Source: an uncultured virus (IMG/VR IMGVR_UViG_3300046500_000156) (taxonomy: Duplodnaviria > Heunggongvirae > Uroviricota > Caudoviricetes > Schitoviridae). Taken from it: 20,000 nt of DNA. Shown piece by piece: positions 1-16,656 of this stretch. Position 1 is the first letter of the stretch. Every line of letters begins with the position of its first letter. The stretch lies in IMG/VR virus record IMGVR_UViG_3300046500_000156. One strand, written 5' to 3'. Under the pieces are notes generated by a model, which saw nothing but the letters and a program-made list of their open reading frames with translations, did no database searches and was not told the DNA's origin. A program made the position numbers and the translations under genes.

Positions 1-129
1 GTCCATGCCGAGCGCACGGATAATGTCCTCGCACTCCGCCTGATACGGAGCCTGTTCCTTGCGCTGCGGATTGTCGACACGGCACAGGTAGTAGTTCACC
101 TTACCGCCCGTGAGCTTGGCGTCGCTCAT
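1..129 (-). CDS. Conserved phage protein, N-terminal part only (runs off the window edge); DUF3310-like, at the N4 gp41-like position
   Basis: Manual translation from ATG at 129: MSDAKLTGGKVNYYLCRVDNPQRKEQAPYQAECEDIIRALGMD. It starts 2 nt after the upstream stop. GG.VNYY...ECEDII.ALGM resembles the start of a common phage family (from memory). Not in the ORF track. Confidence 0.65.
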   Translation of the reverse strand, partial: MSDAKLTGGKVNYYLCRVDNPQRKEQAPYQAECEDIIRALGMD

Positions 130-131
130 GA

Positions 132-482
132 TCAGAGCCCGCCCTTGATGACCGACATCACCTTCTTGGCTGCGCTCTCGTCCACCTTCGGAGGCGCGAG
201 GAACTCGTCCTCGGTCATGAAGCCGAGCGTGACGATGTTGTTGATCACCACATCGACGATGTCGATGGTCTGGAACTCTTCGCCGAGCTTCTTGAGCAGC
301 TGCATCTGTACGGCCTGCTGCGCCTTGCCGATCATGGCCGAAGGAAGCTGGTCCTTGTCGCCCGTGATGGTGGCGTTCAGCGGAACCGAAGACGGCTGTG
401 CGTTCTCGACACCCTTCACATGGAAGACGATGGTGGCCGAGACGAGGAAGAAGAAACGTTTCTTGGATGCGGGAGCTTTCAT
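132..482 (-). CDS. Hypothetical protein, 116 aa (immediately downstream of the DNA polymerase, N4 gp40-like position)
   Basis: ORF track; GAGG upstream of ATG; codon usage like the neighbours; syntenic position. Confidence 0.8.
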   Translation of the reverse strand: MKAPASKKRFFFLVSATIVFHVKGVENAQPSSVPLNATITGDKDQLPSAMIGKAQQAVQMQLLKKLGEEFQTIDIVDVVINNIVTLGFMTEDEFLAPPKVDESAAKKVMSVIKGGL

Positions 483-497
483 GTGGGCCTCAATTGA

Positions 498-531
498 TGA
501 AGAAGGGGAGCCGGTTTCCCTTGGCTCCCCT
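498..531 (-). terminator. GC-rich hairpin with GAAA loop: weak intrinsic terminator or 5' stabilising hairpin
   Basis: Minus strand AGGGGAGCC-AA-GG-GAAA-CC-GGCTCCCCT, followed by TCTTCA. Arms at 504-512 and 523-531. The U-tract is weak. Confidence 0.55.
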
Positions 532-547
532 CAAACTTATTTCTAAT
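529..547 (-). promoter_or_regulatory. Repeated motif copy 1 (ATTAGA-AATAAG-TTTGAGG), candidate phage middle promoter
   Basis: One of six co-oriented copies with identical 6-nt spacing. Confidence 0.6.
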
Positions 548-596
548 GGACGGATGATAAAGGACGATTTCAGCGGTGTCTAGCGGTTAACTGCAA

Positions 597-615
597 CCCC
601 AAACAAACCTCTAAT
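597..615 (-). promoter_or_regulatory. Repeated motif copy 2 (ATTAGA-GGTTTG-TTTGGGG)
   Basis: Same bipartite motif; abuts the polymerase stop codon. Confidence 0.55.
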
Positions 616-3236
616 TACGCAGCGAGTTTCTCCATGGCGGCATCGAGCACGGCGAGGATCTCCGGCTCTCTGGCCCCATTGGGAATGGTGATTTCGTTGG
701 CCCAGGTCGGGAAGAAAATACCGACCTCGCCGCCGAGCTTCACCTGGTCATGCCAGATGTCCGGGTGGTCCTGCCACTGCACGGCCTTCACCAGGTGTTC
801 GTTCATGAATTCGAGACACTTCATGTCCTCATCCACCAGGTAATACTGGGCATCGTGGATGTGGGCGCAGGGCCGAATCCGTGTACGCATGTACGGGGCG
901 GCCCGCACCTTTTCCATGAACTCGACACCGGCTCGGGTGTTGAGCAGACACCAGCTCTGCCCGAGCGCATTGCCGGCAGTACGGCCTTCAGCTTCCGCTT
1001 CCCGTGGCGTCTTGCTCGTGCCACGGATCACCTGAGCCAGACGGGGAGTGCGAACCCTCAGACCAAAAGCCACGGTCACGTAACCATCCTTGGATGCTTT
1101 GTCGAGCTTGTCCTGCACCCAGTCGATGCTCACCTTGTAGAGCGACTTGTACGCCGCCTCGATGGACATGGCCAGCGTGAGCGAAAAGCCGCAGTTCTTC
1201 ATCAAGGTGGCATACGTCCCTTGATAGGTGAGGGCGAAGGTTGGTGCCTTGGACTTGCCGCGTAGCACGGAATACTTCCCGTCGATGGAGTTGATGCTGT
1301 CCACCGAATTGGGATCGATGTCTGGCATCTGCTCACCGAAGTACGAGTAAGCCCGCAGACAGTGTCCGTCATAGCCATCGGTGTAGACCTTGAGCTTGTT
1401 CGGATCCTTGGTCGTGAGCGCACTGATGCGATCCTCGAGCGAGGCGAAGTCCAGTCCCGCATAGATCTTGCCGGGTGGTGCTTCGACGCACTTCTTGATC
1501 ATCTTGCCGTACTCGCCCTTGCGGCCCTTGTGGCCACCAGCTGGCAGGTTCTGCAGGTTCGGCTCATTGGATGACAGCCGTCCGGAGACGGTGCCGCCCA
1601 GGTTGAAGCCACCGAACATGTAATACCAGCCGTCAGGACCGAGCTGAGCGTTCTCCATCGCCGGGATGAAGGTGCCCAGAATCTTCTCGACCAGCTTGAA
1701 GTCGAGCATGGCCTTCAGGAACTCCAGCATGTGTGGATCCTGGGTGTGGTTCTGCAACGCCTCGAAGGTCTTGGCGTTGGTCTTCGGCTGCCGGGTGGCG
1801 GACAGGTCGATGACTGGCAGACCGTGCACCTCGAAGAGCAGGTCTTGTAGCTGGGGCGCCGAGCGAGGATTGAACTCGCGCTCATCCTGCGGGCAGTCTG
1901 CGACCGTGACGCGCTTCTTTTTCAGGGTGGCGTTCTTCTTCTCCGCCCATTTCTCAGCCCGTCGATACGAATACTGCTGCGCAATCTTCGACTGGCTGAT
2001 GATGGTCAGCGACCGGTCATAGTCGGTCTGCATTTCTGCTTTGACCTTCTTGACCGTCTGCATGTTGATGGGCAGGCCCGTCAACTGCATCTGGATGATG
2101 TCCACCGTTCCCGGTTTGAAAAGGGTCTGGTAGATGTTGAGCTGGTCATCCTTGACCATGGTCGGGTAGTGCTTGTTGTAGACGAACCAGGTAGACAGGC
2201 AGTCCACCAGGTTGTATTCCAGCAACTGCGGCAGGGGGATCTTGGTGATGTCCTCGATCTCCGATTGCGCGTAGTTGCCGGCGAATGCCTGTGACTGGTC
2301 CTTCAGACCGAGACTGTTACCGGCACAGGAATTCGTCGCCAGATACGTGATCAGCAGCGTGCAGTCCCAGTTCCGGAGCATCACTTCGATGCCGTTGAGC
2401 AGGCCTTCGGTGTCGACGATGTGCTTCATGTACAGCTGATAGATCAGGATGTACACGTCAAAAGCGATGCGGTGATAGGCCGCTTTCTGCTTGAGCCGGT
2501 TGAAGAACTTGCGCAGCAGCATGCGGCGGTGCTCGTTTCTCACCTGTCTGCCGAACGGGGCTTCGGTCGCTCCCTCGATGGGCACATAGTCCACCGGGAA
2601 GGCAATCCCTTCTCCCTGGTTCCAGGCGAAGCTGATGGTGCCGATGCCAGCGTTATAGTGCTTCAGGCCAAACGTCTCGATGTCAATCGACAGCGACACG
2701 TTCATGTCGATGAGCTTGTCCAGCCACGCCTCGATCTCCACATCCGTCTGAGGATAATCAGCGAATTTGATGATGCCGTGGCCGGGTGCCTTATAGGCGC
2801 CGGTTGCGTGCTCCACCATGGCGTCGATGCCTTGCTTGATCTTCGCCCGGATACCGGTCGGATCGGCAAAGAGCGCTCTGAACGAAGGAATGTAGAGCAC
2901 CTTCTGGTCGCCGAACTTGGAGTCCATCACGTAGCCGAGATTGGCATCGCTCTTGTTGGCGCCGGTGAGCGTCTTGAAGTAGCCGGAGTCAGTCACAAGG
3001 ATGTACTGCACCTTGTTGTCATCCAGCGTGCCTTGCAGCTGCTCCTTGATGTAGCGCTGCATCTCGGCAGCCGAAGTCTTCTTGCCGGTGAAGTGCAGGT
3101 CGAGCACCATCACGTCATCCTGATGCACTTTCCCGCCCTCGGGAAAGTACGCACGGGCAATCTCATCCTTCATGATCTGACCGACCAGAAGACACACCGG
3201 ATACTCCGGCTGCTGTGACCAAACGTGATGCCGCAT
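615..3236 (-). CDS. polA: Family A DNA polymerase with 3'-5' exonuclease domain (N4 gp39-like)
   Basis: ExoI SIDIET; ExoIII YNLVD; GTVSGRLSS.EPNLQNLP; motif A DFASLEDRI; motif B RGKSKAPTFALTYQG; motif C HIHDA. Start moved from 3398 to ATG 3236, which has AGGAG 9 nt upstream and removes the overlap with the upstream gene. Confidence 0.97.
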   Translation of the reverse strand: MRHHVWSQQPEYPVCLLVGQIMKDEIARAYFPEGGKVHQDDVMVLDLHFTGKKTSAAEMQRYIKEQLQGTLDDNKVQYILVTDSGYFKTLTGANKSDANLGYVMDSKFGDQKVLYIPSFRALFADPTGIRAKIKQGIDAMVEHATGAYKAPGHGIIKFADYPQTDVEIEAWLDKLIDMNVSLSIDIETFGLKHYNAGIGTISFAWNQGEGIAFPVDYVPIEGATEAPFGRQVRNEHRRMLLRKFFNRLKQKAAYHRIAFDVYILIYQLYMKHIVDTEGLLNGIEVMLRNWDCTLLITYLATNSCAGNSLGLKDQSQAFAGNYAQSEIEDITKIPLPQLLEYNLVDCLSTWFVYNKHYPTMVKDDQLNIYQTLFKPGTVDIIQMQLTGLPINMQTVKKVKAEMQTDYDRSLTIISQSKIAQQYSYRRAEKWAEKKNATLKKKRVTVADCPQDEREFNPRSAPQLQDLLFEVHGLPVIDLSATRQPKTNAKTFEALQNHTQDPHMLEFLKAMLDFKLVEKILGTFIPAMENAQLGPDGWYYMFGGFNLGGTVSGRLSSNEPNLQNLPAGGHKGRKGEYGKMIKKCVEAPPGKIYAGLDFASLEDRISALTTKDPNKLKVYTDGYDGHCLRAYSYFGEQMPDIDPNSVDSINSIDGKYSVLRGKSKAPTFALTYQGTYATLMKNCGFSLTLAMSIEAAYKSLYKVSIDWVQDKLDKASKDGYVTVAFGLRVRTPRLAQVIRGTSKTPREAEAEGRTAGNALGQSWCLLNTRAGVEFMEKVRAAPYMRTRIRPCAHIHDAQYYLVDEDMKCLEFMNEHLVKAVQWQDHPDIWHDQVKLGGEVGIFFPTWANEITIPNGAREPEILAVLDAAMEKLAA

Positions 3237-3250
3237 CTCGTGAAGCTCCT

Positions 3251-3784
3251 TCAGTAAATCAGTCGGGTTGTTGCGTACAGCTGGATCTTCGGCAGGATCT
3301 TCTCGAACTGCCGTCTGTCCCTCGGGGTGAGATGACATGTCGCCTCCTCGAAAGGCATCGTGCGTTCCAGATTGGAGCCAGTGACAGCAACCAGGCACTC
3401 CGGCATCCGGTTGCGAAAGTCCTGCCGGTCATTCCAGCCATGCAGACACTTGAAGAGCGTCTGCTGGATCTGGTCTTTATCCAGGCGGAGTTCTCGCGTT
3501 TCCTTGAGCCACTTGTCCATCTGATCGTTCAGTGCGAACGCCAGATTGGATGCGCACTTGGTGGGAACCTTGACAGTGCGGCCATGCGCAAACACCTCAC
3601 CGCCATACCGGAAGGCCAGCCAGCCCCGTTGTTCCGGGGGCAGGATCTCTTCGTGCATTTCCACGATGCGATCCAGTGCCTGCTGCATCCTTCGGCTCTC
3701 TGGCTCAAAAACTCGGTCCATGAACTGGGTGAGCCACTTGTACGTCTGGTTCCCTGCGGTGACAGGTAAGGGCTTGGTGGCCAT
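3251..3784 (-). CDS. Hypothetical protein, 177 aa (between helicase and polymerase, N4 gp38-like position)
   Basis: ORF track; AAAGGAAAG RBS; tight packing and synteny. Confidence 0.85.
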   Translation of the reverse strand: MATKPLPVTAGNQTYKWLTQFMDRVFEPESRRMQQALDRIVEMHEEILPPEQRGWLAFRYGGEVFAHGRTVKVPTKCASNLAFALNDQMDKWLKETRELRLDKDQIQQTLFKCLHGWNDRQDFRNRMPECLVAVTGSNLERTMPFEEATCHLTPRDRRQFEKILPKIQLYATTRLIY

Positions 3785-3794
3785 GATCTTTCCT

Positions 3795-5093
3795 TTATCG
3801 GGTCATGCCTCCGAACTTCTCGGCCAGGTCGCCATAGCAGACGACCCTTCGGCGAGCACGGCTGAAGGCGACATAGAGCAGGCGGGCAGCCTGGTCCGGA
3901 TTGCGGCAGGTGGACAGGTCATCGAGATCGATGAACACCGTGTCGTAGGTGGAGCCTTGCGCCTTGTGGACGGTGGCCGCATCCCGCTGACGCAGATCCG
4001 GGTGGGTCTTTTTCAGGTCGTAATACATGAACCAGTTCTTCTGGCTCTTGTAGTACTTCAGCAGCCGGTCGAAGTGATCCCGGTCCACTGGCACTTCCAC
4101 GTCGCGGTAGACCTCGTTGTAACGGTTGGCCAGCGTCGTGTGGATGATCTCGAGCTCCACGCCACCTTCGAGCTGGATCATCTCGGTGTCACCCTGGTAG
4201 ATGATTTCGAGTTCCTCTTCCACGTGGATGGTCATGTTGCCCAGCATCACCGCGGAGTTGTTGATGAGGAATTCACCCACCGTGTAGTCGTTGCCCAAGC
4301 CCCGCATCTCACGGATGTGGGCGTTGTAGTCCTTCACCCGGTTATTGGTGTAGGCGAGGATGCGCTTGTCGTGCGTCTGCTCGGCAAAGGCCTTGGCCAC
4401 TTCCGCTTCCATCGCCGGGCCATCGAGCCAGTCGATGATGCCGGGGACAGCCCGGATGGGCTTGAAGACACCGGTTTTCACCGTCTCACGCAGCTGGGCG
4501 TTGGTCGCCTGCAGCTCGGGGATGGTGGTGCGCATCTGCTCTTCGAGCTCGAAGAAGGGCAGACTGGCGACATACACGGGGCTCACCGCTTCCATGATCG
4601 GGGAGAGCTGGCAGTGATCGCCCACGTAGACGATCTTGCAGCCGTTGGTGCCTTCCAGGATCTTGTTGCGCAGGGGCGTATCGATCATCGAGGCTTCGTC
4701 GATGAAGAGAATCTTGTTGTGGTGCACCTTCCATTGTTTCCCTGGCTCAAGACGGGTCTGGCCGGTCCTGAAATCTTCCTTGATGATCAGGTTCAGGAAC
4801 GAATGGATGGTTTGCGTGGGCCGTTTGGTGGCTTCCGCCAGCACTTCAGCGGCCTTGTTGGTGGTGGCCGTCATCACCACTTCGGTGAAGCGGGATTTCT
4901 CGCCAAGCATCTGGCACATCTGCTCGTATTGGGGCATCACCTGATCGATCAGGTAGCTCATCAGGTACGTCTTGCCCACGCCTCCGGGGCCGGAGATGCA
5001 GAGTTCTTTGTCAGGACCGAACAGGAATTGCATGAAGCCTTCCGCTGCGGCCTGCTGTCCGCTATTGAGCGGAATGGTTTTCAGTTGTTCCAT
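3795..5093 (-). CDS. SF1B DNA helicase, Dda/RecD-like (N4 gp37-like)
   Basis: Q-motif LNSGQQAA; Walker A GPGGVGKT; TATTNKAA; Walker B FIDEASM; VGDHCQLSP; ATVHKAQGSTYD; LLYVAFSRAR. Confidence 0.95.
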   Translation of the reverse strand: MEQLKTIPLNSGQQAAAEGFMQFLFGPDKELCISGPGGVGKTYLMSYLIDQVMPQYEQMCQMLGEKSRFTEVVMTATTNKAAEVLAEATKRPTQTIHSFLNLIIKEDFRTGQTRLEPGKQWKVHHNKILFIDEASMIDTPLRNKILEGTNGCKIVYVGDHCQLSPIMEAVSPVYVASLPFFELEEQMRTTIPELQATNAQLRETVKTGVFKPIRAVPGIIDWLDGPAMEAEVAKAFAEQTHDKRILAYTNNRVKDYNAHIREMRGLGNDYTVGEFLINNSAVMLGNMTIHVEEELEIIYQGDTEMIQLEGGVELEIIHTTLANRYNEVYRDVEVPVDRDHFDRLLKYYKSQKNWFMYYDLKKTHPDLRQRDAATVHKAQGSTYDTVFIDLDDLSTCRNPDQAARLLYVAFSRARRRVVCYGDLAEKFGGMTR

Positions 5094-10934: not shown

Positions 10935-10953
10935 CCACAAACTTAATTCTAAC
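10935..10953 (-). promoter_or_regulatory. Repeated motif copy 5 (GTTAGA-ATTAAG-TTTGTGG)
   Basis: Same motif and spacing; its TAG is the thyX stop codon. Confidence 0.5.
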
Positions 10954-11920: not shown

Positions 11921-12402
11921 TTGATGGCTTCCTTGTTAAGGAGCTTGTGTAATTTGTTGAGGGTGTACTCAATCCCACCAACGTGGTGCTGCACCTTCAG
12001 GGACTGCTCCAGCAGCTGCTTCCTCGTCGCAGCAATCTGGAGCTGGTCGGTGAGATTGAGCGCTTGCTTCAGGCTGAGCAGTTCGTCCCCGTTGAGTCCG
12101 AACTTGCCAAGCCTTTGATACCGCTCACCCACAGAGATGAGGCTGCCCAAAGCAGGAATGAAGACTTCTTCTTCCAAAGTCTCCATGCCGGCTTCATCAG
12201 CAAACTCGATGAGTGAGGCACCCACCAGAATGCGGAAGGTGACGGTCAGGTACGTCTCCTCGTCACCCCGACCTTCTGCCATTGCAGCAAGCTGCCCGTG
12301 AGGTACGAGTTGCAGATTGAGTTCGGCTTCCCTATTGAAGCGAACAAGGGTCGAGCCACGGACAAACTTCTTGCGGGACTGGAAAAACTGGGGACGGGGC
12401 AT
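11917..12402 (-). CDS. Hypothetical protein, 161 aa
   Basis: AAGGT RBS; ATGA overlap with the thyX start. Confidence 0.8.
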   Translation of the reverse strand: MPRPQFFQSRKKFVRGSTLVRFNREAELNLQLVPHGQLAAMAEGRGDEETYLTVTFRILVGASLIEFADEAGMETLEEEVFIPALGSLISVGERYQRLGKFGLNGDELLSLKQALNLTDQLQIAATRKQLLEQSLKVQHHVGGIEYTLNKLHKLLNKEAIK

Positions 12403-12420
12403 TTCGATTACCTTGCTTTG

Positions 12421-12537
12421 TTACCGACGAACTGCTCTGCTGAGTGCTTCTGCAACACCCACGATTGCGTAGGCAATGAAGGCGACGATGATGATGGTCG
12501 TGCCGGGGTTGTTATCCATGAATTGGTACAGGCTCAT
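12421..12537 (-). CDS. Small single-pass membrane protein, 38 aa
   Basis: Manual translation MSLYQFMDNNPGTTIIIVAFIAYAIVGVAEALSRAVRR; AGGGAG RBS; ATGA overlap with the upstream gene. Not in the ORF track. Confidence 0.75.
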   Translation of the reverse strand: MSLYQFMDNNPGTTIIIVAFIAYAIVGVAEALSRAVRR

Positions 12538-12740
12538 TGCGTAGCTCCCTGCTGAAACTGTTTCGTGTAGTCATGGTGATGTGCGCCTCGACGCCCACCG
12601 CCACCATGTGCGGCAGGGACAAACCCCACCGGGCCGAGCTCATCGGAGATGACGAACCGCTTGTTGACGGTGTCTTCCCAGATGTGGCCGAGATCGCCGA
12701 CACCGACATAGCGCCAGCGGTCGAGAGCGAAGGTTTCCAT
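12534..12740 (-). CDS. Hypothetical protein, 68 aa (METFALDRW...)
   Basis: TGATG coupling with the upstream gene and GGAG RBS at ATG 12740; ATGA coupling downstream. Confidence 0.7.
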   Translation of the reverse strand: METFALDRWRYVGVGDLGHIWEDTVNKRFVISDELGPVGFVPAAHGGGGRRGAHHHDYTKQFQQGATQ

Positions 12741-12895
12741 CACCAGGCTCCGAACCACACGCCGATGCCGTGGATGATGCCGATGGGAAAGAGCAGCGCT
12801 CCGGCGATCAGCAGGCCGTAGGCGTGATCCCCAATGCAGGTGAAGATGTGCGTGAGCCAGGCGAGGAACAGGCCCAGTGCGATGAAAACGTACAT
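12740..12895 (-). CDS. Small two-helix membrane protein, 51 aa
   Basis: Manual translation MYVFIALGLFLAWLTHIFTCIGDHAYGLLIAGALLFPIGIIHGIGVWFGAW; AGGAG RBS. AWLTH...FPIGIIHG resembles a recurrent small phage membrane protein (from memory). Not in the ORF track. Confidence 0.8.
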   Translation of the reverse strand: MYVFIALGLFLAWLTHIFTCIGDHAYGLLIAGALLFPIGIIHGIGVWFGAW

Positions 12896-12896
12896 G

Positions 12897-13370
12897 TCAG
12901 AATCTCCTGTTCTTCAGATAGAACGGCAACTTGGCTTTGGCCTGCTCCGTCTTGCGATTGGCGAGTGCTCCGTTCTTGGCCCTTGGCTCAGGTTCTCGCT
13001 GGTCTTCGACAGGCTCACGGAACGCAGGCTTCTGTCCCGGATGACCGAAGACCGTGTAGTCCGGTTTGCTGCCGAAGTCAGCGCCAAGAAACATGTGTCG
13101 CTCCAGCTTCTCTGCCCAACTGTCGGTGGGCTTCGGCGGCAGTGGTGCCGGCTCCTTCAGTTCCCGCTGGAGATCGAGCACCATCTGGGCGATGGACTTG
13201 CCGTAGTAGCGGGGCGTGCTGAACACGATCACTCGACGTTCGAGATGTTCAAGATTCAGCGCCAGCATGCGGTCAGTGATGGCCACTGAGTCCGGCTTTA
13301 AGTCCAGCACCTTGTCCATGAATTCAGCGAAGGCCGGGTCTTGCCTCGGATCTTTCTTTTCCTGGTTCAT
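12897..13370 (-). CDS. Hypothetical protein, 157 aa
   Basis: ORF track; GAGG RBS; TGATG coupling. Confidence 0.75.
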   Translation of the reverse strand: MNQEKKDPRQDPAFAEFMDKVLDLKPDSVAITDRMLALNLEHLERRVIVFSTPRYYGKSIAQMVLDLQRELKEPAPLPPKPTDSWAEKLERHMFLGADFGSKPDYTVFGHPGQKPAFREPVEDQREPEPRAKNGALANRKTEQAKAKLPFYLKNRRF

Positions 13371-13576
13371 CAGTAGTGACCTCGTGCACGGCGAACAGAA
13401 GGGACCATCTCGGTGTTGCCCATGGCCAGTTCCTTCTTGGGCTTCTCTTCGATGGTGACGACGAAGCCTTCATGGCGAGCTAGGGAGATGACTCGCTCCA
13501 GCTCTTTTTCCAGACAGTGCTGGGCATAGCCTTCGGGCATGATGCGCACCAGCTCTGCGAAGGTGGGAAGATTCAT
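13370..13576 (-). CDS. Hypothetical protein, 68 aa (MNLPTFAEL...)
   Basis: GGGGAG RBS upstream of ATG 13576; its stop is coupled to the next gene. Confidence 0.75.
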   Translation of the reverse strand: MNLPTFAELVRIMPEGYAQHCLEKELERVISLARHEGFVVTIEEKPKKELAMGNTEMVPSVRRARGHY

Positions 13577-13577
13577 G

Positions 13578-13724
13578 TCACTCCCCCGAGTCCGCTTGCT
13601 TGGCGAGTGCACGGTGTTCGCGCAGACGCTCCAGCAGACCGTGTTCACTGAACGGAACGCCGCTGATGGTTCCGTGTGTTTCGAGCCATTGCTCGACTTC
13701 ATCGAGCAGCATTGCATCGTTCAT
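13578..13724 (-). CDS. Hypothetical protein, 48 aa (MNDAMLLDEVEQW...)
   Basis: AGGA and an A-rich spacer upstream of ATG 13724; ends 1 nt before the next start. Confidence 0.65.
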   Translation of the reverse strand: MNDAMLLDEVEQWLETHGTISGVPFSEHGLLERLREHRALAKQADSGE

Positions 13725-13747
13725 TTTTTGTAGTTGTCCTGAGTGGG

Positions 13748-13783
13748 AATAAGAAAGGGCGAGCACCTTTCGATACTCGCCCT
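13748..13783 (-). terminator. Rho-independent terminator, possibly conditional
   Basis: Minus strand AGGGCGAGTATC-GAAA-GGTGCTCGCCCT-TTCTTATT: 12-bp stem with two G-U pairs and a GNRA loop. Confidence 0.8.
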
Positions 13784-13801
13784 GCCCAGATAAGTTGAAA
13801 G

Positions 13802-14007
13802 ACGTACCTGGCACTACCTCGGGGAAGGCAGCTTGGAGTGCTCTACCGGTTGAAGTTGGTTATTCAAACGCGGGCCTCAGCAGCAAAACACTCCGAGCTG
13901 ACAACGTGCAGTTACTGGTTCAGGTCTGCCCTAGCCATACTCTTCTTTGACCGGTCGCCTATGAGTTGATCGGATTCTGAAGATACGCCCCACTGCACGA
14001 GGTACGT
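13802..14007 (-). ncRNA. Candidate structured RNA element (multibranch fold), family not recognised
   Basis: Closing helix 13802-13809/14000-14007 (8 bp perfect); helix 13905-13912/13992-13999 (8 bp perfect); helix 13829-13848/13881-13900 (20 positions, 1 mismatch and 4 G-U on the minus strand). Confidence 0.5.
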
Positions 14008-14059
14008 ATTCCTTTAGGAGGAAGTAGGCCAACACCAACATCAGCAAAGCGATGTACAT
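13931..14059 (-). CDS. Small hydrophobic/basic peptide, 42 aa (single TM)
   Basis: Manual translation MYIALLMLVLAYFLLKEYVPRAVGRIFRIRSTHRRPVKEEYG; GAGGA RBS; directly behind motif copy 6. Not in the ORF track. Confidence 0.6.
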   Translation of the reverse strand: MYIALLMLVLAYFLLKEYVPRAVGRIFRIRSTHRRPVKEEYG

Positions 14060-14067
14060 GTTGTCTT

Positions 14068-14086
14068 CCTCAAAGTTATATCTAAT
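14068..14086 (-). promoter_or_regulatory. Repeated motif copy 6 (ATTAGA-TATAAC-TTTGAGG)
   Basis: About 10 nt downstream of a terminator U-tract, the same layout as copy 4. Confidence 0.65.
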
Positions 14087-14096
14087 TGTCTATCTG

Positions 14097-14121
14097 AAAA
14101 AGGGAGCTGTCAAGGCTCCCT
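14097..14121 (-). terminator. Rho-independent terminator ending the AAA-vWA-dcd unit
   Basis: Minus strand AGGGAGC-CTTGACA-GCTCCCT-TTTT. Confidence 0.8.
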
Positions 14122-14150
14122 CACCAAAACAACACCCAACAAAACCAGAA

Positions 14151-14324
14151 TCAATCTGGCTCAGCGAGGATCTTCTGGCGTGCCACCATCAGATCCAGCA
14201 TGAACTTCTTCTCCCATTGGCCGTAGCAGGCGCCACAGTAGAACTGATAGCGCCTGTCGAGCAGCACCCAGGCATTGGGCTCCTTGCAGGTACTACACAG
14301 AGGCAATAGCTGGGACTGGCTCAT
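14151..14324 (-). CDS. Small C4 zinc-finger / zinc-ribbon protein, 57 aa
   Basis: Manual translation MSQSQLLPLCSTCKEPNAWVLLDRRYQFYCGACYGQWEKKFMLDLMVARQKILAEPD (CxxC-16-CxxC); AAGGA RBS; fills the gap between dcd and the terminator. Not in the ORF track. Confidence 0.7.
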   Translation of the reverse strand: MSQSQLLPLCSTCKEPNAWVLLDRRYQFYCGACYGQWEKKFMLDLMVARQKILAEPD

Positions 14325-14817
14325 CGGCTTGTCCTTGATACTTTCCTTCGTACCAGGAGGGGTTCTTCACCTGGTGAAAGATCACCTGACCGATGCCGGC
14401 GCCAGCCGGAATGACCAGTGCCCCTTCACCACGGTAGAACAATTCGAGGGTCAGAAAGCCCTTCCATCCTGGCTCCAGGACTGTATTCCCGATCATCAGC
14501 CCCTGACGAATCCAGGTGGACTTGTCGTGCAGGATGCCCATCAGATCGGGCGGCATCTCGAACTCCTCGACGCTCGATGCGAGCGTGAAGCTGCCGGGCC
14601 GGATATGGTAATGGACCATCTTACCGTCCGGTCCCTTTTCCAGCATGACAGCTCGGCGCTTGAGCGGGCCTTCGGAGACGAACTGGATTTCCTGCTTGAT
14701 GCGAATGTCGTAACCGACTTCGACGAGGCCGTGGCTCACGCCATGGGCCTTTTCCTTGGTTCCCAGCATGCCCTTGATGGGCTGCTTCAAGAACAGGTCG
14801 ATACCGTTGATGACCAT
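14293..14817 (-). CDS. dcd: dCTP deaminase (trimeric dUTPase-like fold; N4 gp26-like)
   Basis: GYDIRI; PGSFTLASSVEEFEMP; DKSTWIRQG; TVLEPGWKGFLTLE; IGQVIF; YEGKYQGQ. Confidence 0.92.
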   Translation of the reverse strand: MVINGIDLFLKQPIKGMLGTKEKAHGVSHGLVEVGYDIRIKQEIQFVSEGPLKRRAVMLEKGPDGKMVHYHIRPGSFTLASSVEEFEMPPDLMGILHDKSTWIRQGLMIGNTVLEPGWKGFLTLELFYRGEGALVIPAGAGIGQVIFHQVKNPSWYEGKYQGQADEPVPAIASV

Positions 14818-15975
14818 TTACGTCACGTCCTGAATGGTGAGGGATTCCCCGAAGGTGGGCTTGTGGCCCCGGCGTGATGGCAGCATCACCCAGAGCACCG
14901 GAATGTCCTCGATCCCTTCCTGGCTCATCGGGGCGCACTCCATGTCGGAGAAGATGATAGCCGCAGTTGGCTTTTCCTCCAAGATATGTCTATGGACACA
15001 CGCCAGAGACGTGCCTCCGCGGCCAGTGATTTCGAGCTTCTCGAACTCGTCATCCTCTTCCCACACGTCCGTGCGGCGGATTGACGTGTCAAACTGCACG
15101 ACCGTGAGCTTCTCCGGACGGAAGGTGTCTTTCACAAACTTGAGTTCGGATTTGAAGCGCACGATGGCCGGCATCTGGCACGAGCCTGACACGTCCATGT
15201 ACCAGGCGAGATTCTCCAGCCGGCCCATGTCCAGACGCCTCGACGGCAAATACATGTCGTCATAGCGGCGATTGGGCTTGGACCAGCTGTAATCCTCGTC
15301 GAGCAGTTGGGTGCACCAGCGCGAGAGGATCGACTGCCACGGAACCACGGGAGTGAGGTATTGCTCGATGAGCTCAGCCACGCCTCCGGGCACATTGCCG
15401 GCTCCGCTCATCTTGGCTTGCTGGACCGCGGTGACCACGGTGTTGATCACCTGTTGCTTCTTGTCCGGAGGTGGCGGATGCATGTCGGTGTGGTAGTTCG
15501 TTGGCGGCTTATGGCCGTTTTTGACAAGATCGTCATAAACGTCTTCTTCGGCCCAGCCCTTGTACTGGCGAGCGTTTAAATCCGGCCAACTGAGTACGCC
15601 TTGGATGTTATCGAACGTAAAGCCCTCTTCCTCAAGCGACAGGTCGATGATGATGTCGCAGGCAATGTTCCACAAAGCCGGGTCTCGGGATCCTCGGCGA
15701 AGCATGTGAAGACGCGCTACGTGCCAGAGTTCGTGCATCAGGTCCGTCTTTCGAGATGCCAAGGGCAAACTCAGAAAGTAGTCCGGGCTCCACCAGATGT
15801 GTATCCCGTCTGTACCGGCAGTGGGTAACGCCCGTGACCATACGAATTCCAGGCTTGACATCACTGAGCCAAGGAAGGCGGCGGTGCCCGAGTGCATGAA
15901 GACTTGCGCCTTCGTCTGATCGAGCAGCTTGTTCAGTGCTCGCAGATCGAGGGATGCCGGATCAGCTGGCTGCAT
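14818..15975 (-). CDS. HEXXH metallopeptidase-like plus vWA domain protein (N4 gp25-like)
   Basis: TAGTDG; HELWH; WNIACDIIID; PNRRY; MIDAS DVSGS; FDT; GRGGT; IFSD. Confidence 0.9.
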   Translation of the reverse strand: MQPADPASLDLRALNKLLDQTKAQVFMHSGTAAFLGSVMSSLEFVWSRALPTAGTDGIHIWWSPDYFLSLPLASRKTDLMHELWHVARLHMLRRGSRDPALWNIACDIIIDLSLEEEGFTFDNIQGVLSWPDLNARQYKGWAEEDVYDDLVKNGHKPPTNYHTDMHPPPPDKKQQVINTVVTAVQQAKMSGAGNVPGGVAELIEQYLTPVVPWQSILSRWCTQLLDEDYSWSKPNRRYDDMYLPSRRLDMGRLENLAWYMDVSGSCQMPAIVRFKSELKFVKDTFRPEKLTVVQFDTSIRRTDVWEEDDEFEKLEITGRGGTSLACVHRHILEEKPTAAIIFSDMECAPMSQEGIEDIPVLWVMLPSRRGHKPTFGESLTIQDVT

Positions 15976-16213
15976 GGCTCACCTCATTGGGAATGAAGTT
16001 GGCCGGCTCCGTGTTGAGCGAATGCAGCTCGATGGCCACCAGCCCGGCGTCCTTCTTCGCTGGCTTGAAGTAATCCATCGCCCGGCACTTGGCTGAGTAG
16101 AGCGAAGGGGCGAACACCACAACCGTCTTTCCCTTGAATAGGGACAAGTAGGTGTGGTCATTGTCCCCCTGCTCATTGATGAAGACAGGCCGGCGATCAT
16201 TGATGATGGGCAT
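15962..16213 (-). CDS. Hypothetical protein, 83 aa (MPIINDRR...)
   Basis: AAGGGA RBS upstream of ATG 16213. Confidence 0.75.
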   Translation of the reverse strand: MPIINDRRPVFINEQGDNDHTYLSLFKGKTVVVFAPSLYSAKCRAMDYFKPAKKDAGLVAIELHSLNTEPANFIPNEVSHAAS

Positions 16214-16385
16214 GGTTGTCCCTTGAAAGACGGATGCGGTAGCCAAACCCGATCTTCAGGTATCGGGTGTAGCCGTTGCGTTCGGAAAAGAGGGGCCGGT
16301 GACTCTTGATCTCGAAGACCCAGCGGCCCCAGCGAATCCAGCCATTTAGCTTCTGGCCGGGTTCCCGGTAGAAGGCGTGGGACAT
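16197..16385 (-). CDS. Hypothetical protein, 62 aa, basic and aromatic
   Basis: AAGGAGAGG RBS; PLFSERNGY segment. Confidence 0.75.
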   Translation of the reverse strand: MSHAFYREPGQKLNGWIRWGRWVFEIKSHRPLFSERNGYTRYLKIGFGYRIRLSRDNHAHHQ

Positions 16386-16480
16386 TGTTCCTCTCCTTGG
16401 CTCGATTTCGACGGGGCGTGATAGCCCATTGCCCTGAGCCAGAAACCCCAGAGCATCATGGTGTAGGTGGGTGCGAACAT
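16346..16480 (-). CDS. Possible small protein, 44 aa (MFAPTYTMMLWGFWLRAMG...)
   Basis: ATG lies 2 nt after the upstream stop (TGATCATG, a junction also seen near 130 and 16657). No clear RBS, and a 40-nt overlap with the next gene. Confidence 0.4.
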   Translation of the reverse strand: MFAPTYTMMLWGFWLRAMGYHAPSKSSQGEEQCPTPSTGNPARS

Positions 16481-16482
16481 GA

Positions 16483-16656
16483 TCAGGCGGGCTGGTAGAT
16501 GAAGATGACGGAGCGGTCTTCGACGCCAGTGAAGTGCGCCTGGTCGTCTTCGATCACGTTGAGAATGGCGAGCTCTTTTGCTTCGTCCTCGGTATCGGCT
16601 TCGACATCGAGGACGTGCTGGATGACTTCCTGCACGGTGACACGGTATTTGGCCAT
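16483..16656 (-). CDS. Small acidic protein, 57 aa, DpnD/PcfM-like pattern
   Basis: Manual translation MAKYRVTVQEVIQHVLDVEADTEDEAKELAILNVIEDDQAHFTGVEDRSVIFIYQPA; AAAGG RBS. Not in the ORF track. Confidence 0.75.
   Translation of the reverse strand: MAKYRVTVQEVIQHVLDVEADTEDEAKELAILNVIEDDQAHFTGVEDRSVIFIYQPA

Follow-up and report, generated by a model that had tools for sequence, protein, structure and literature searches.

A hairpin-closed phage RNA module that follows a small membrane peptide gene and recurs between tRNA genes and within a permuted tmRNA

The early region of phage T7 contains intercistronic hairpins processed by RNase III. Type I toxin systems such as hok/sok and ldr/rdl combine a short membrane peptide with a structured mRNA. 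YrlA RNAs (RF02553), as described in PMC4201824, have a long stem formed by their 5′ and 3′ ends and an internal UUCGA (T-loop-like) module, and some are phage-encoded near tRNAs. Permuted, two-piece transfer-messenger RNAs (tmRNAs; RF04321/RF01850) are made from transcripts cut by tRNA-processing enzymes, and one intervening sequence holds an intact tRNA gene (PMC11915505); the intervening sequence is known only as a removed segment with no assigned function. Here we analyse a 20,000-nt stretch of DNA (the window) from an uncultured Schitoviridae virus, IMG/VR record IMGVR_UViG_3300046500_000156. Our subject is a unit on its minus strand, at 14086–13748, that comprises a promoter-like motif, a gene for a 42-residue membrane peptide, a structured RNA and a terminator.

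The RNA of this unit has something in common with each of these systems. As in T7, a long hairpin with an internal loop lies between the cistrons of what would be a polycistronic phage transcript, upstream of a terminator that is probably leaky. Unlike the T7 hairpins, the RNA of the unit has junction strands that are conserved across unrelated phage families and a core that also occurs in an apparently circularly permuted form. With the toxin mRNAs the unit shares a short membrane peptide, a structured mRNA, a predicted hairpin that sequesters the Shine-Dalgarno (SD) sequence, and long-range pairing; the differences are that we found no antisense RNA gene here, that both hairpins of the unit carry their U tracts on the minus strand only, and that the 3′ structure is an independent module rather than a co-inherited part of the peptide mRNA. 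Like YrlA as it is described in that source, the module is closed at its ends by a long stem, contains UUCGA, is phage-encoded and in some cases lies near tRNAs, but it lacks D- or T-arm pairs. RF02553 does not match the module (in the L156 locus introduced below it gives only a sub-threshold 37.7 bits against a gathering threshold of 69, over two tRNAs), and none of five records carries a Ro60/TROVE gene (PF05731), for which control matches were obtained in Deinococcus and Bacteroides.

We propose that the interval is a phage operon head with two independent modules. A sigma-70-like −35/−10 element overlapping an ATTAGA..TTTGAGG motif would start a transcript carrying first the membrane peptide and then a hairpin-closed non-coding RNA. 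Most transcripts would probably stop at an intrinsic terminator, yielding a ~330-nt RNA, and the remainder would read through into the small genes leading to thyX. We take the module to be a stable RNA that exists as a discrete species. Its conserved junction would be the working part, most likely as a site that binds a protein or another RNA in trans, and the module would not regulate the peptide. We lean slightly towards this statement as a whole. We are highly confident of the anatomy, homology, covariation, strand and separability described below; a trans-acting function is put forward more tentatively, as somewhat short of an even bet.

The RNA module has the following parts in the window.

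13906–13821, minus strand: structured RNA module, a reduced family member (covariance model R1, 57.3 bits, E 3e-15)
13900–13896/13833–13829 and 13894–13881/13835–13848, minus strand: helix P1 (fold and covariance model)
13879–13875/13851–13855, minus strand: inner helix UGAGG/CUUCA with a small apical hairpin (fold)

The layout of the family consists of a closing helix of ~20 bp, P1; a junction with two near-invariant strands, of which A reads UGCCG and B reads AACAAGCGGAUUCGNCCG; a second, short helix, S1; and variable distal hairpins. The covariance model R1 was built from the alignment of four copies from N4-like phages on which RNAalifold was run. Across 91 sources (505,621 bases), full-length sense matches to R1 were confined to four: the window and three related contigs, L002, L003 and L004. 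R1 also finds a full-length match of 38.9 bits in the Bosavirus-like contig L129, where the sequence of P1 is unrelated but paired throughout and strands CUGCCGCC and CGGAACAAGCGGAUUCGACCGAG are kept. A BLAST search from L129 led to the Stenotrophomonas phage vB_Sm_QDWS359 (locus L156), which scores 43.8 bits; here too the P1 sequence is wholly different and strands A and B are kept. By comparison, loci that have only the strand-B word score 18.6–21.1 bits.

Searches with strand B set the present limits of the family. A 16-mer scan of viral contigs returned 43 loci. R1 was run on 41 of these (the other two are known contigs) and found one full-length member, L129, and one permuted core, in the Pam3-like contig L119; the remaining loci are, by eye, coding matches, many of them from one phage group. 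An 18-mer scan gave five loci with one new (L163), a local match only, and an initial pattern that fitted only the L003 variant gave ten other loci, with local R1 matches of 9–10 bits. In genome scans the specific pattern had no matches and a 21-mer had five, all bacterial and all local only (18.6–21.1 bits); inspected by eye, these apparently lie in coding sequence (an RNKRIRP-type reading, in one case apparently a ribosomal-protein gene). No cellular homologue of the module was found in these genome scans. In L119 the junction strands stand in swapped order within one hairpin closed by the S1 helix, the arrangement expected of a circularly permuted core. The P1 position there holds only a 4-bp capped hairpin, and the surrounding 216-nt intergenic region folds no better than shuffled sequence (z = +0.30).

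The initial annotation had suggested an undescribed phage non-coding RNA, and this is borne out at both gathering and permissive thresholds of Rfam 15. The whole window has no match at gathering thresholds, and the best hit in 13700–14150 has an E-value of 1.3, with all hits far below gathering. Rfam likewise has no match over the RNA of L002–L004, and the only models to match in L129 and L156 are those of tRNA and tmRNA. We found no description of a P1-junction-S1 RNA in the literature searched.

The closing helix conserves pairing rather than sequence. In the RNAalifold consensus of the four N4-like copies, 10 of its 25 predicted pairs are changed on both sides. Covariation among homologues had been named in the initial annotation as a test of the proposed RNA, and across five sequences P1 does covary, with compensatory changes at 16 of 20 pairs and pairing in 94.8% of cells; none of 500 shuffles reaches any of the five measures, and slid controls pair in 33–42%. 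Helix S1 lies next to both junction strands. In 6 of 7 copies it is at least three contiguous pairs long, and alternative pairs occur at position 1 (C-G/U-A), position 3 (G-C/A-U) and position 4 (A-U/C-G/G-C). Metagenomes add two further cases. In a soil variant of the window type, 13898 C>A is accompanied by 13831 G>T, so that a G-C pair becomes U-A. In another soil contig, a close relative, the inner 63 nt (13819–13881) are replaced by 102 other letters, so full and reduced interiors alternate among close relatives.

Which strand folds can be read from the same helix. Across six sequences the P1 cells comprise 101 Watson-Crick pairs, 10 G.U, no A.C, 5 others and 4 gaps; with ten G.U cells and no A.C, the gene strand is the folded strand. 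The initial annotation had made the same strand call from its G-U pairs, and it was right.

The genomic contexts of the module differ between carriers. The QDWS359 locus runs terminase, two tRNAs, an unannotated permuted tmRNA (RF04321, 108.7 bits) and ribonucleotide reductase. The R1 match is exactly the intervening segment of that tmRNA. It begins just after the CCA of the acceptor piece and stops 2 nt short of the coding piece and its 5′ G, and the Rfam models treat it as a 98-nt insertion in the permuted tmRNA loop. The copy in L129 sits flush between tRNA genes (708–781 and 489–561), upstream of a permuted tmRNA and next to ribonucleotide reductase genes. The phage that carries it (G002) therefore has a full copy between tRNAs and, in its tmRNA loop, a shortened, window-like copy (17.3 bits). 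The homology is to the inserted segment only, not to the tRNA-like domain or the tag frame of tmRNA, and R1 does not match the intervening segments of the phages BUDD, X1 and JGB6. By contrast with the tmRNA carriers, the three complete N4-like relatives have no tRNA genes and no tmRNA genes; ARAGORN finds no tRNA-like domain or tmRNA in the window or in L002–L004, and RF04321 finds no tmRNA in records G001 or G003–G006. This fits the promoter-like element and terminator that the module has of its own in the N4-like phages.

Between tRNAs, or within a permuted tmRNA, tRNA-processing enzymes would excise the module, and for this reason we read it as a discrete, stable RNA. It is also separable from the peptide. 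L003 has the motif and the RNA and lacks the peptide gene, and L002 has an extra terminator-like hairpin between the block around the peptide stop codon and the RNA. Judged from these arrangements, the module is inherited independently of the peptide.

Several side observations concern the same loci. In QDWS359 a 'hypothetical protein' coding sequence on the opposite strand, vBSmQDWS359_42, overlies the permuted tmRNA (L156, the reverse complement of ON331942.1 33420–36452; 1356–1934 and 1367–1661), so that an annotated protein lies over an unannotated tmRNA and RNA module. The tag of this tmRNA reads ANDSVYAQAIAA by eye. In L129, 705–781 on the minus strand (identical to L154 5727–5803) is a phage tRNA (RF00005, 47.4 bits) to which ARAGORN assigns a four-base anticodon, gcgg, implying an enlarged anticodon loop. 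Both Bosavirus-like phages have a second long-stem RNA of ~130 nt between tRNA-Ile and tmRNA (L156 1124–1253; L129 433–297, minus strand). R1 scores these at 23.6 and 11 bits, through the stem only, and they match no Rfam family; they look like another candidate structured RNA. The permuted tmRNAs of the Xanthomonas phages BUDD, X1 and JGB6 have long stem-closed inserts after the CCA (L157 690–880, L158 690–880 and L159 600–740), with unrelated interiors.

Around the module, the unit is built from the following elements.

14120–14096, minus strand: upstream intrinsic-terminator-like hairpin, GGGAGC, loop CUUGACA, GCUCCC, then UUUUUC (by eye; not listed by the terminator scan)
14113–14085, minus strand: predicted sigma-70-like promoter match, TTGACA, 17 nt, GACAAT (consensus scan, 10 of 12 matches)
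14086–14068, minus strand: repeated promoter-like motif ATTAGA-N6-TTTGAGG, copy 6 of the initial annotation and repeat family D10 (pattern scan)
ahead of the ATG at 14059, minus strand: SD sequence GAGGAAG (read from the sequence)
13832–13786, minus strand: spacer of ~50 nt with two small predicted hairpins (fold prediction)
13783–13747, minus strand: intrinsic terminator, a 12-pair hairpin at 13783–13756 and then an interrupted U tract, UUUCUUAUU (terminator scan)

All the elements that the initial annotation had listed—terminators, motif, ribosome-binding site, 42-codon reading frame and ~150 nt of structured RNA—are present on the minus strand at these positions. A G+C-rich hairpin followed by a U tract is found at 13783–13756 and, by eye, at 14120–14096. 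The upstream hairpin, from its sequence, would end the dcd/Zn-ribbon transcript. Its loop contains the TTGACA −35 hexamer, a point overlooked in the first reading, and the TTGACA-17-GACAAT match is the sole promoter-like site that the consensus scan finds in 12000–16500. The hairpin with its TTGACA loop is also present in L002 and L003, and L004 has TTGACA in a different hairpin. By eye, all three relatives follow TTGACA with a spacer of 17–18 nt and then TACATT, TATATT or CAGAAT. The span from TTGACA to the −10-like hexamer ending at the ATTAGA motif lies at ~3958–3990 in L002, ~3727–3760 in L003 and ~1666–1695 in L004; where TTGACA is the terminator loop (window, L002 and L003), the promoter is nested in the terminator. 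The motif itself, (A/G/C)(T/C)TAGA-N6-TTTG(A/T/G)GG, has six gene-strand copies in the window, at 14086, 10953, 10845, 6028, 615 and 547. Its TTTGAGG half overlaps into the SD sequence, and it is retained in L002, L003 and L004.

The order of elements is shared. In L002 and L004 the motif is followed by a homologous peptide gene, the 40-nt stop-codon block, a structured RNA of 160–170 nt, a terminator and the same downstream gene, and an equivalent terminator stands 3′ of the RNA in all three relatives. The spacer at 13832–13786, which holds the 3′ partner (13802–13809) of a long-range closing helix, is specific to the window lineage; L002, L003 and L004 have no counterpart, and their RNA leads almost straight into the terminator. 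The promoter motif is absent between the 3′ terminator and the next genes (13724 downwards), its next copies being those at 10953 and 10845, and so the terminator must be leaky or read through. The description of a self-contained unit thus holds for the anatomy and fails in one respect: the downstream genes depend on read-through. As a side observation, a G/T-rich word, GTTTGTTTGGGG or a close variant, recurs just 3′ of stop codons and ahead of terminator hairpins, both in the window (~615–590 and 10925–10905, minus strand) and in all three relatives (L002 3928–3940, L003 3695–3710 and L004 1636–1648).

Folding of the window unit was predicted for 14100–13740 (361 nt). The three helices described in the initial annotation all appear in the minimum-energy structure: 14007–14000/13802–13809 with pair probabilities of 0.78–0.89, 13999–13992/13905–13912 with 0.75–0.96, and 13900–13881/13829–13848, which has 19 of 20 positions paired, a C.A mismatch at 13895/13834, four G.U pairs and core probabilities of 0.94–1.0. 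Folding of both strands against dinucleotide-shuffled controls, which the annotation had also named as a check, favours the minus strand: its whole unit beats all 100 shuffles (z = −3.70), and 2 of 100 shuffles do as well as the plus strand (z = −2.04). For the 78-nt core the values are z = −4.21 (0 of 200) and z = −2.84 (2 of 200), respectively.

Several points weigh against the proposal of an operon head with a trans-acting RNA. The family known so far is small: its three lineages comprise the four N4-like phages, a pair of related Bosavirus-like phages and a single permuted core. L129 and L119 were found through the strand-B word, and the conservation of strand B is therefore partly ascertainment. 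Because the alignments behind the counts had been fitted to the model and cover no more than three lineages, the covariation figures are supportive rather than final. The strands of L003 fold equally well (z = −4.71 versus −5.16). Moreover, the core is not intact in the window: strand A is UGCUG rather than UGCCG and is absorbed into P1 in the predicted fold, strand B is GAAUAACCAACUUCAACCGG and matches at 14 of 20 positions (by eye, alignment A2), the S1 equivalent has 5 of 7 positions paired, and distal hairpins are absent. Within the ORF of the window, 16 contiguous nt pair with both RNA flanks at high predicted probability, which could mean that RNA and peptide mRNA are functionally linked in the window lineage. 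Finally, the stretch is listed with no RNA run, and it is from sequence that we infer an active promoter, read-through of the terminator, the release of a discrete RNA and any function in trans.

The P1 of the window copy is nearly letter-for-letter the same as in L002 and L004. By sequence comparison this copy is a reduced, divergent family member, with a parallel in the reduced copy that the tmRNA loop of G002 holds. With its shortened interior and mutated junction strands it may keep only a hairpin role, as a processing site or a 3′-end-protecting stem, and for this copy a role in cis, as a stem for cleavage or for stability, is the more likely one.

The same idea can be extended to the whole family. 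The module would then be a purely cis-acting processing or stability element, either an RNase III-type site or a 3′-end-protecting stem, with no trans-acting product; the stem would separate the peptide mRNA from the distal genes, on the model of the early mRNAs of T7, and help to excise the tmRNA intervening segment. P1 spans about two helical turns in every copy, the reduced copies (window and G002 tmRNA loop) retain P1 and lose the core, and the 20-bp helix is long enough that it may be an RNase III substrate. Other Xanthomonas phage tmRNA loops start with a long stem right after the CCA, followed by unrelated interiors. Moreover, the N4-like phage LUZ7 has, according to PMC9163698, extensive terminator read-through and processed small RNAs. 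However, a cleavage stem leaves unexplained a near-invariant junction of 18–21 nt across unrelated phage families, the covariation of S1, the permuted L119 core with its short hairpin in place of P1, and the presence in G002 of a full copy between tRNAs beside a reduced copy in the tmRNA loop. A purely cis-acting element is the main rival to our proposal, and we consider it rather unlikely as an account of the family.

The peptide was treated as a subject of its own. Its rows are the following.

14059–13931, minus strand: gene for a 42-residue single-pass membrane peptide, stop included (ORF translation, identical to the sequence in the initial annotation)
13945–13905, minus strand: conserved 41-nt block spanning the peptide stop codon (comparison with relatives)
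13938–13936 (ATG) to 13914–13912 (TAA), minus strand: possible 8-codon mini-ORF, MARADLNQ, within the 41-nt block

The peptide has a hydrophobic stretch, YIALLMLVLAYFLL, near its N-terminus and a basic tail, and at fewer than 60 residues it falls within the size range of small hydrophobic peptides. We have nine distinct sequences: those of the window, P0001–P0004, L002 (identical to P0005), L004, P0006 and P0007. The homologues share MY, the hydrophobic stretch, KE[YH][VW]PRAVG, RP and a C-terminal EYG. In alignment A3, which comprises seven sequences and excludes P0006 and P0007, the invariant positions are M1, Y2, R21-A22-V23, R25, R35-P36 and E40-Y41-G42; by eye, P0006 has S in place of R25. 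Indels are whole codons and stay in frame. Of the codons compared between the window and L002, 22 are the same and 8 have synonymous changes, while 13 have non-synonymous ones. Neither Pfam nor PHROG has a family match for the peptide, and its best score in the protein atlas is 0.79, under the lead level. A peptide profile search also returned two long proteins (623 and 909 residues; E ~1e-5, over partial stretches), which were dropped as not comparable. In viral contigs the profile gave 14 stretches, two of them confirmed: L002, and L098, which is false, as it lies inside a larger ORF and has R1 scores of at most 8.6 bits. From these patterns, the peptide is a real, clade-restricted gene product, a small membrane peptide.

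The block around its stop codon is 97.5% identical over 40 nt in L004, against 60% identity for the dcd protein. The ATG of the mini-ORF MARADLN(Q/H) lies 5 nt ahead of the peptide stop, and the frame is conserved in L002, L004 and soil variants. Variants in soil runs fall at third codon positions (13930, 13924 and 13915) and once at a second position (13928); the three third-position variants form one haplotype, which makes them only a hint. The mini-ORF may reflect translational coupling or a constraint at the RNA level.

A short peptide with a hydrophobic N-terminus and a basic tail, followed by a structured RNA, had suggested a Hok/Ldr-like dual-function toxin mRNA, that is, a type I toxin-like or exclusion cassette in which a membrane toxin is held down by mRNA fold-back and the 3′ structure is part of the control. 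Indeed, the SD sequence GAGGAAG pairs with CUUCCUC (codons 12–14) in the minimum-energy fold (14071–14018, minus strand), and for the three loci that have the peptide, RNAalifold gives this SD-sequestering hairpin as the consensus, with compensatory changes in 4 of its 17 pairs. ORF codons 18–23 pair with both RNA flanks (probabilities 0.75–0.96), and the partners CGUGCAGU and ACUGCAC are kept in L002 and L004. The long-range helices, however, cover neither the SD sequence nor the start codon. The closing 8-bp helix has lost its partner (AGGUACGU) in L002 and L004, and the other 8-bp helix, whose partner is conserved without any variation, shows no covariation. The RNA occurs without the peptide in L003, L129, L156 and L119, a separability to which the extra hairpin of L002 adds. 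There is no opposite-strand promoter-like site in 12000–16500 by the consensus scan, itself weak evidence. Small membrane peptides are, moreover, common in the same gene block: 12740–12895 (PHROG 7319, E 5e-16) and 12421–12537 encode two others. The latter, on the minus strand, is 38 residues long (PHROG 23152), and its SRAVRR end recalls the PRAVGR motif of the 42-residue peptide. The separable module, the lack of an antisense promoter and the unconserved closing helix make a Hok-like cassette very unlikely; the SD-sequestering hairpin and the 16-nt ORF pairing keep it alive at low odds.

Least credible is a reading without any RNA function, in which the element would act as DNA, be it as a MITE-like insertion, as a cruciform or as an origin, or would be what remains of a decayed tmRNA gene: inverted-repeat bounds, differing genomic contexts, the swapped interior in the relative's contig and one context that is a tmRNA gene speak for it, but the inverted repeats conserve pairing and not sequence, the opposite of transposon ends, the G.U cells without A.C lie on the transcribed strand, and neither ARAGORN nor Rfam finds a tRNA-like domain, CCA end or tag frame in the window or L002–L004. 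We also rejected a riboswitch. The length and stability of P1 rule out switching, the conserved junction is missing from the window copy, and no similarity-based alternative pairing links the 3′ strand of P1 to the terminator.

The surroundings of the unit are those of a Schitoviridae-like phage. Every long ORF of the window is on the minus strand, and according to Pfam the encoded proteins include a DNA polymerase of family A, a helicase of SF1, an rIIA-like HATPase, ThyX, a DUF2201 metallopeptidase/VWA protein and an AAA ATPase. The gene upstream of the unit is dcd:

14817–14293, minus strand: dCTP deaminase (dcd) gene (Pfam)

Compared with its counterparts in cultured N4-like phages (of Erwinia, Burkholderia, Pseudomonas and others), the encoded deaminase reaches no more than 59% identity, which indicates a Schitoviridae-like phage without a close cultured relative. 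The stretch, or part of it, is listed with 24 sequencing runs, which are rhizosphere, soil and fungus metagenomes; none of the 24 is recorded as RNA. A dcd-anchored scan of IMG/VR gave 79 N4-like phage loci, and the interval is shared only by L002, L003 and L004, whose dcd proteins are 60–62% identical to that of the window. The dcd-thyX interval of Schitoviridae, named in the initial annotation, is right as the neighbourhood of the element, but among the 79 loci only those of these three closest relatives have it. Three further anchor proteins around the interval are limited to the same three contigs, and a downstream-anchor profile run on viral contigs gave 145 stretches, of which three were confirmed, again the contigs of L002–L004.

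Other searches for the interval were negative. Of two metagenome scans, the one for the dcd/Zn-ribbon overlap pattern had no matches, and the one with the downstream-anchor protein profile yielded 125 candidates, of which not a single stretch was confirmed. The DNA of 13400–14400 has no match among 50,697 GenBank phages, and an exact 26-mer from the window P1 has none in viral contigs. The nearest record, G001, is identical to the window over 1–4705 only, and has neither the interval nor a second copy of the RNA. ARAGORN on 60 other dcd loci made isolated calls in five (six calls, one a likely false tmRNA), and tRNAs downstream of dcd are not regular.

Our proposal of a discrete RNA acting through its junction can be taken one step further. 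Part of the conserved junction, GGAUUCGAC, resembles what we take to be the D-loop analogue of tmRNA, and the junction also has the T-loop-like UUCGA. The module might be a new, horizontally exchanged phage RNA gene with three modes of delivery, whose junction binds a host translation or tRNA-handling factor as an infection decoy. Candidate targets would be SmpB, a reader of the tRNA elbow or a tRNA-directed defence nuclease. We offer this version as speculation and think it doubtful.

Phage structured RNAs are poorly catalogued, and this module, which is not in Rfam 15, is common to at least three unrelated lineages (N4-like, Bosavirus-like and Pam3-like). It links three routes to a small RNA: a promoter and terminator of its own, the processing of tRNA arrays, and the discarded segment of a two-piece tmRNA. 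If the excised tmRNA segment does function as an RNA, phage permuted tmRNA genes would be bifunctional, and the family would be a handle on a host factor targeted by several phage groups. One carrier, the Stenotrophomonas phage vB_Sm_QDWS359, is cultured, and the idea is therefore directly testable.

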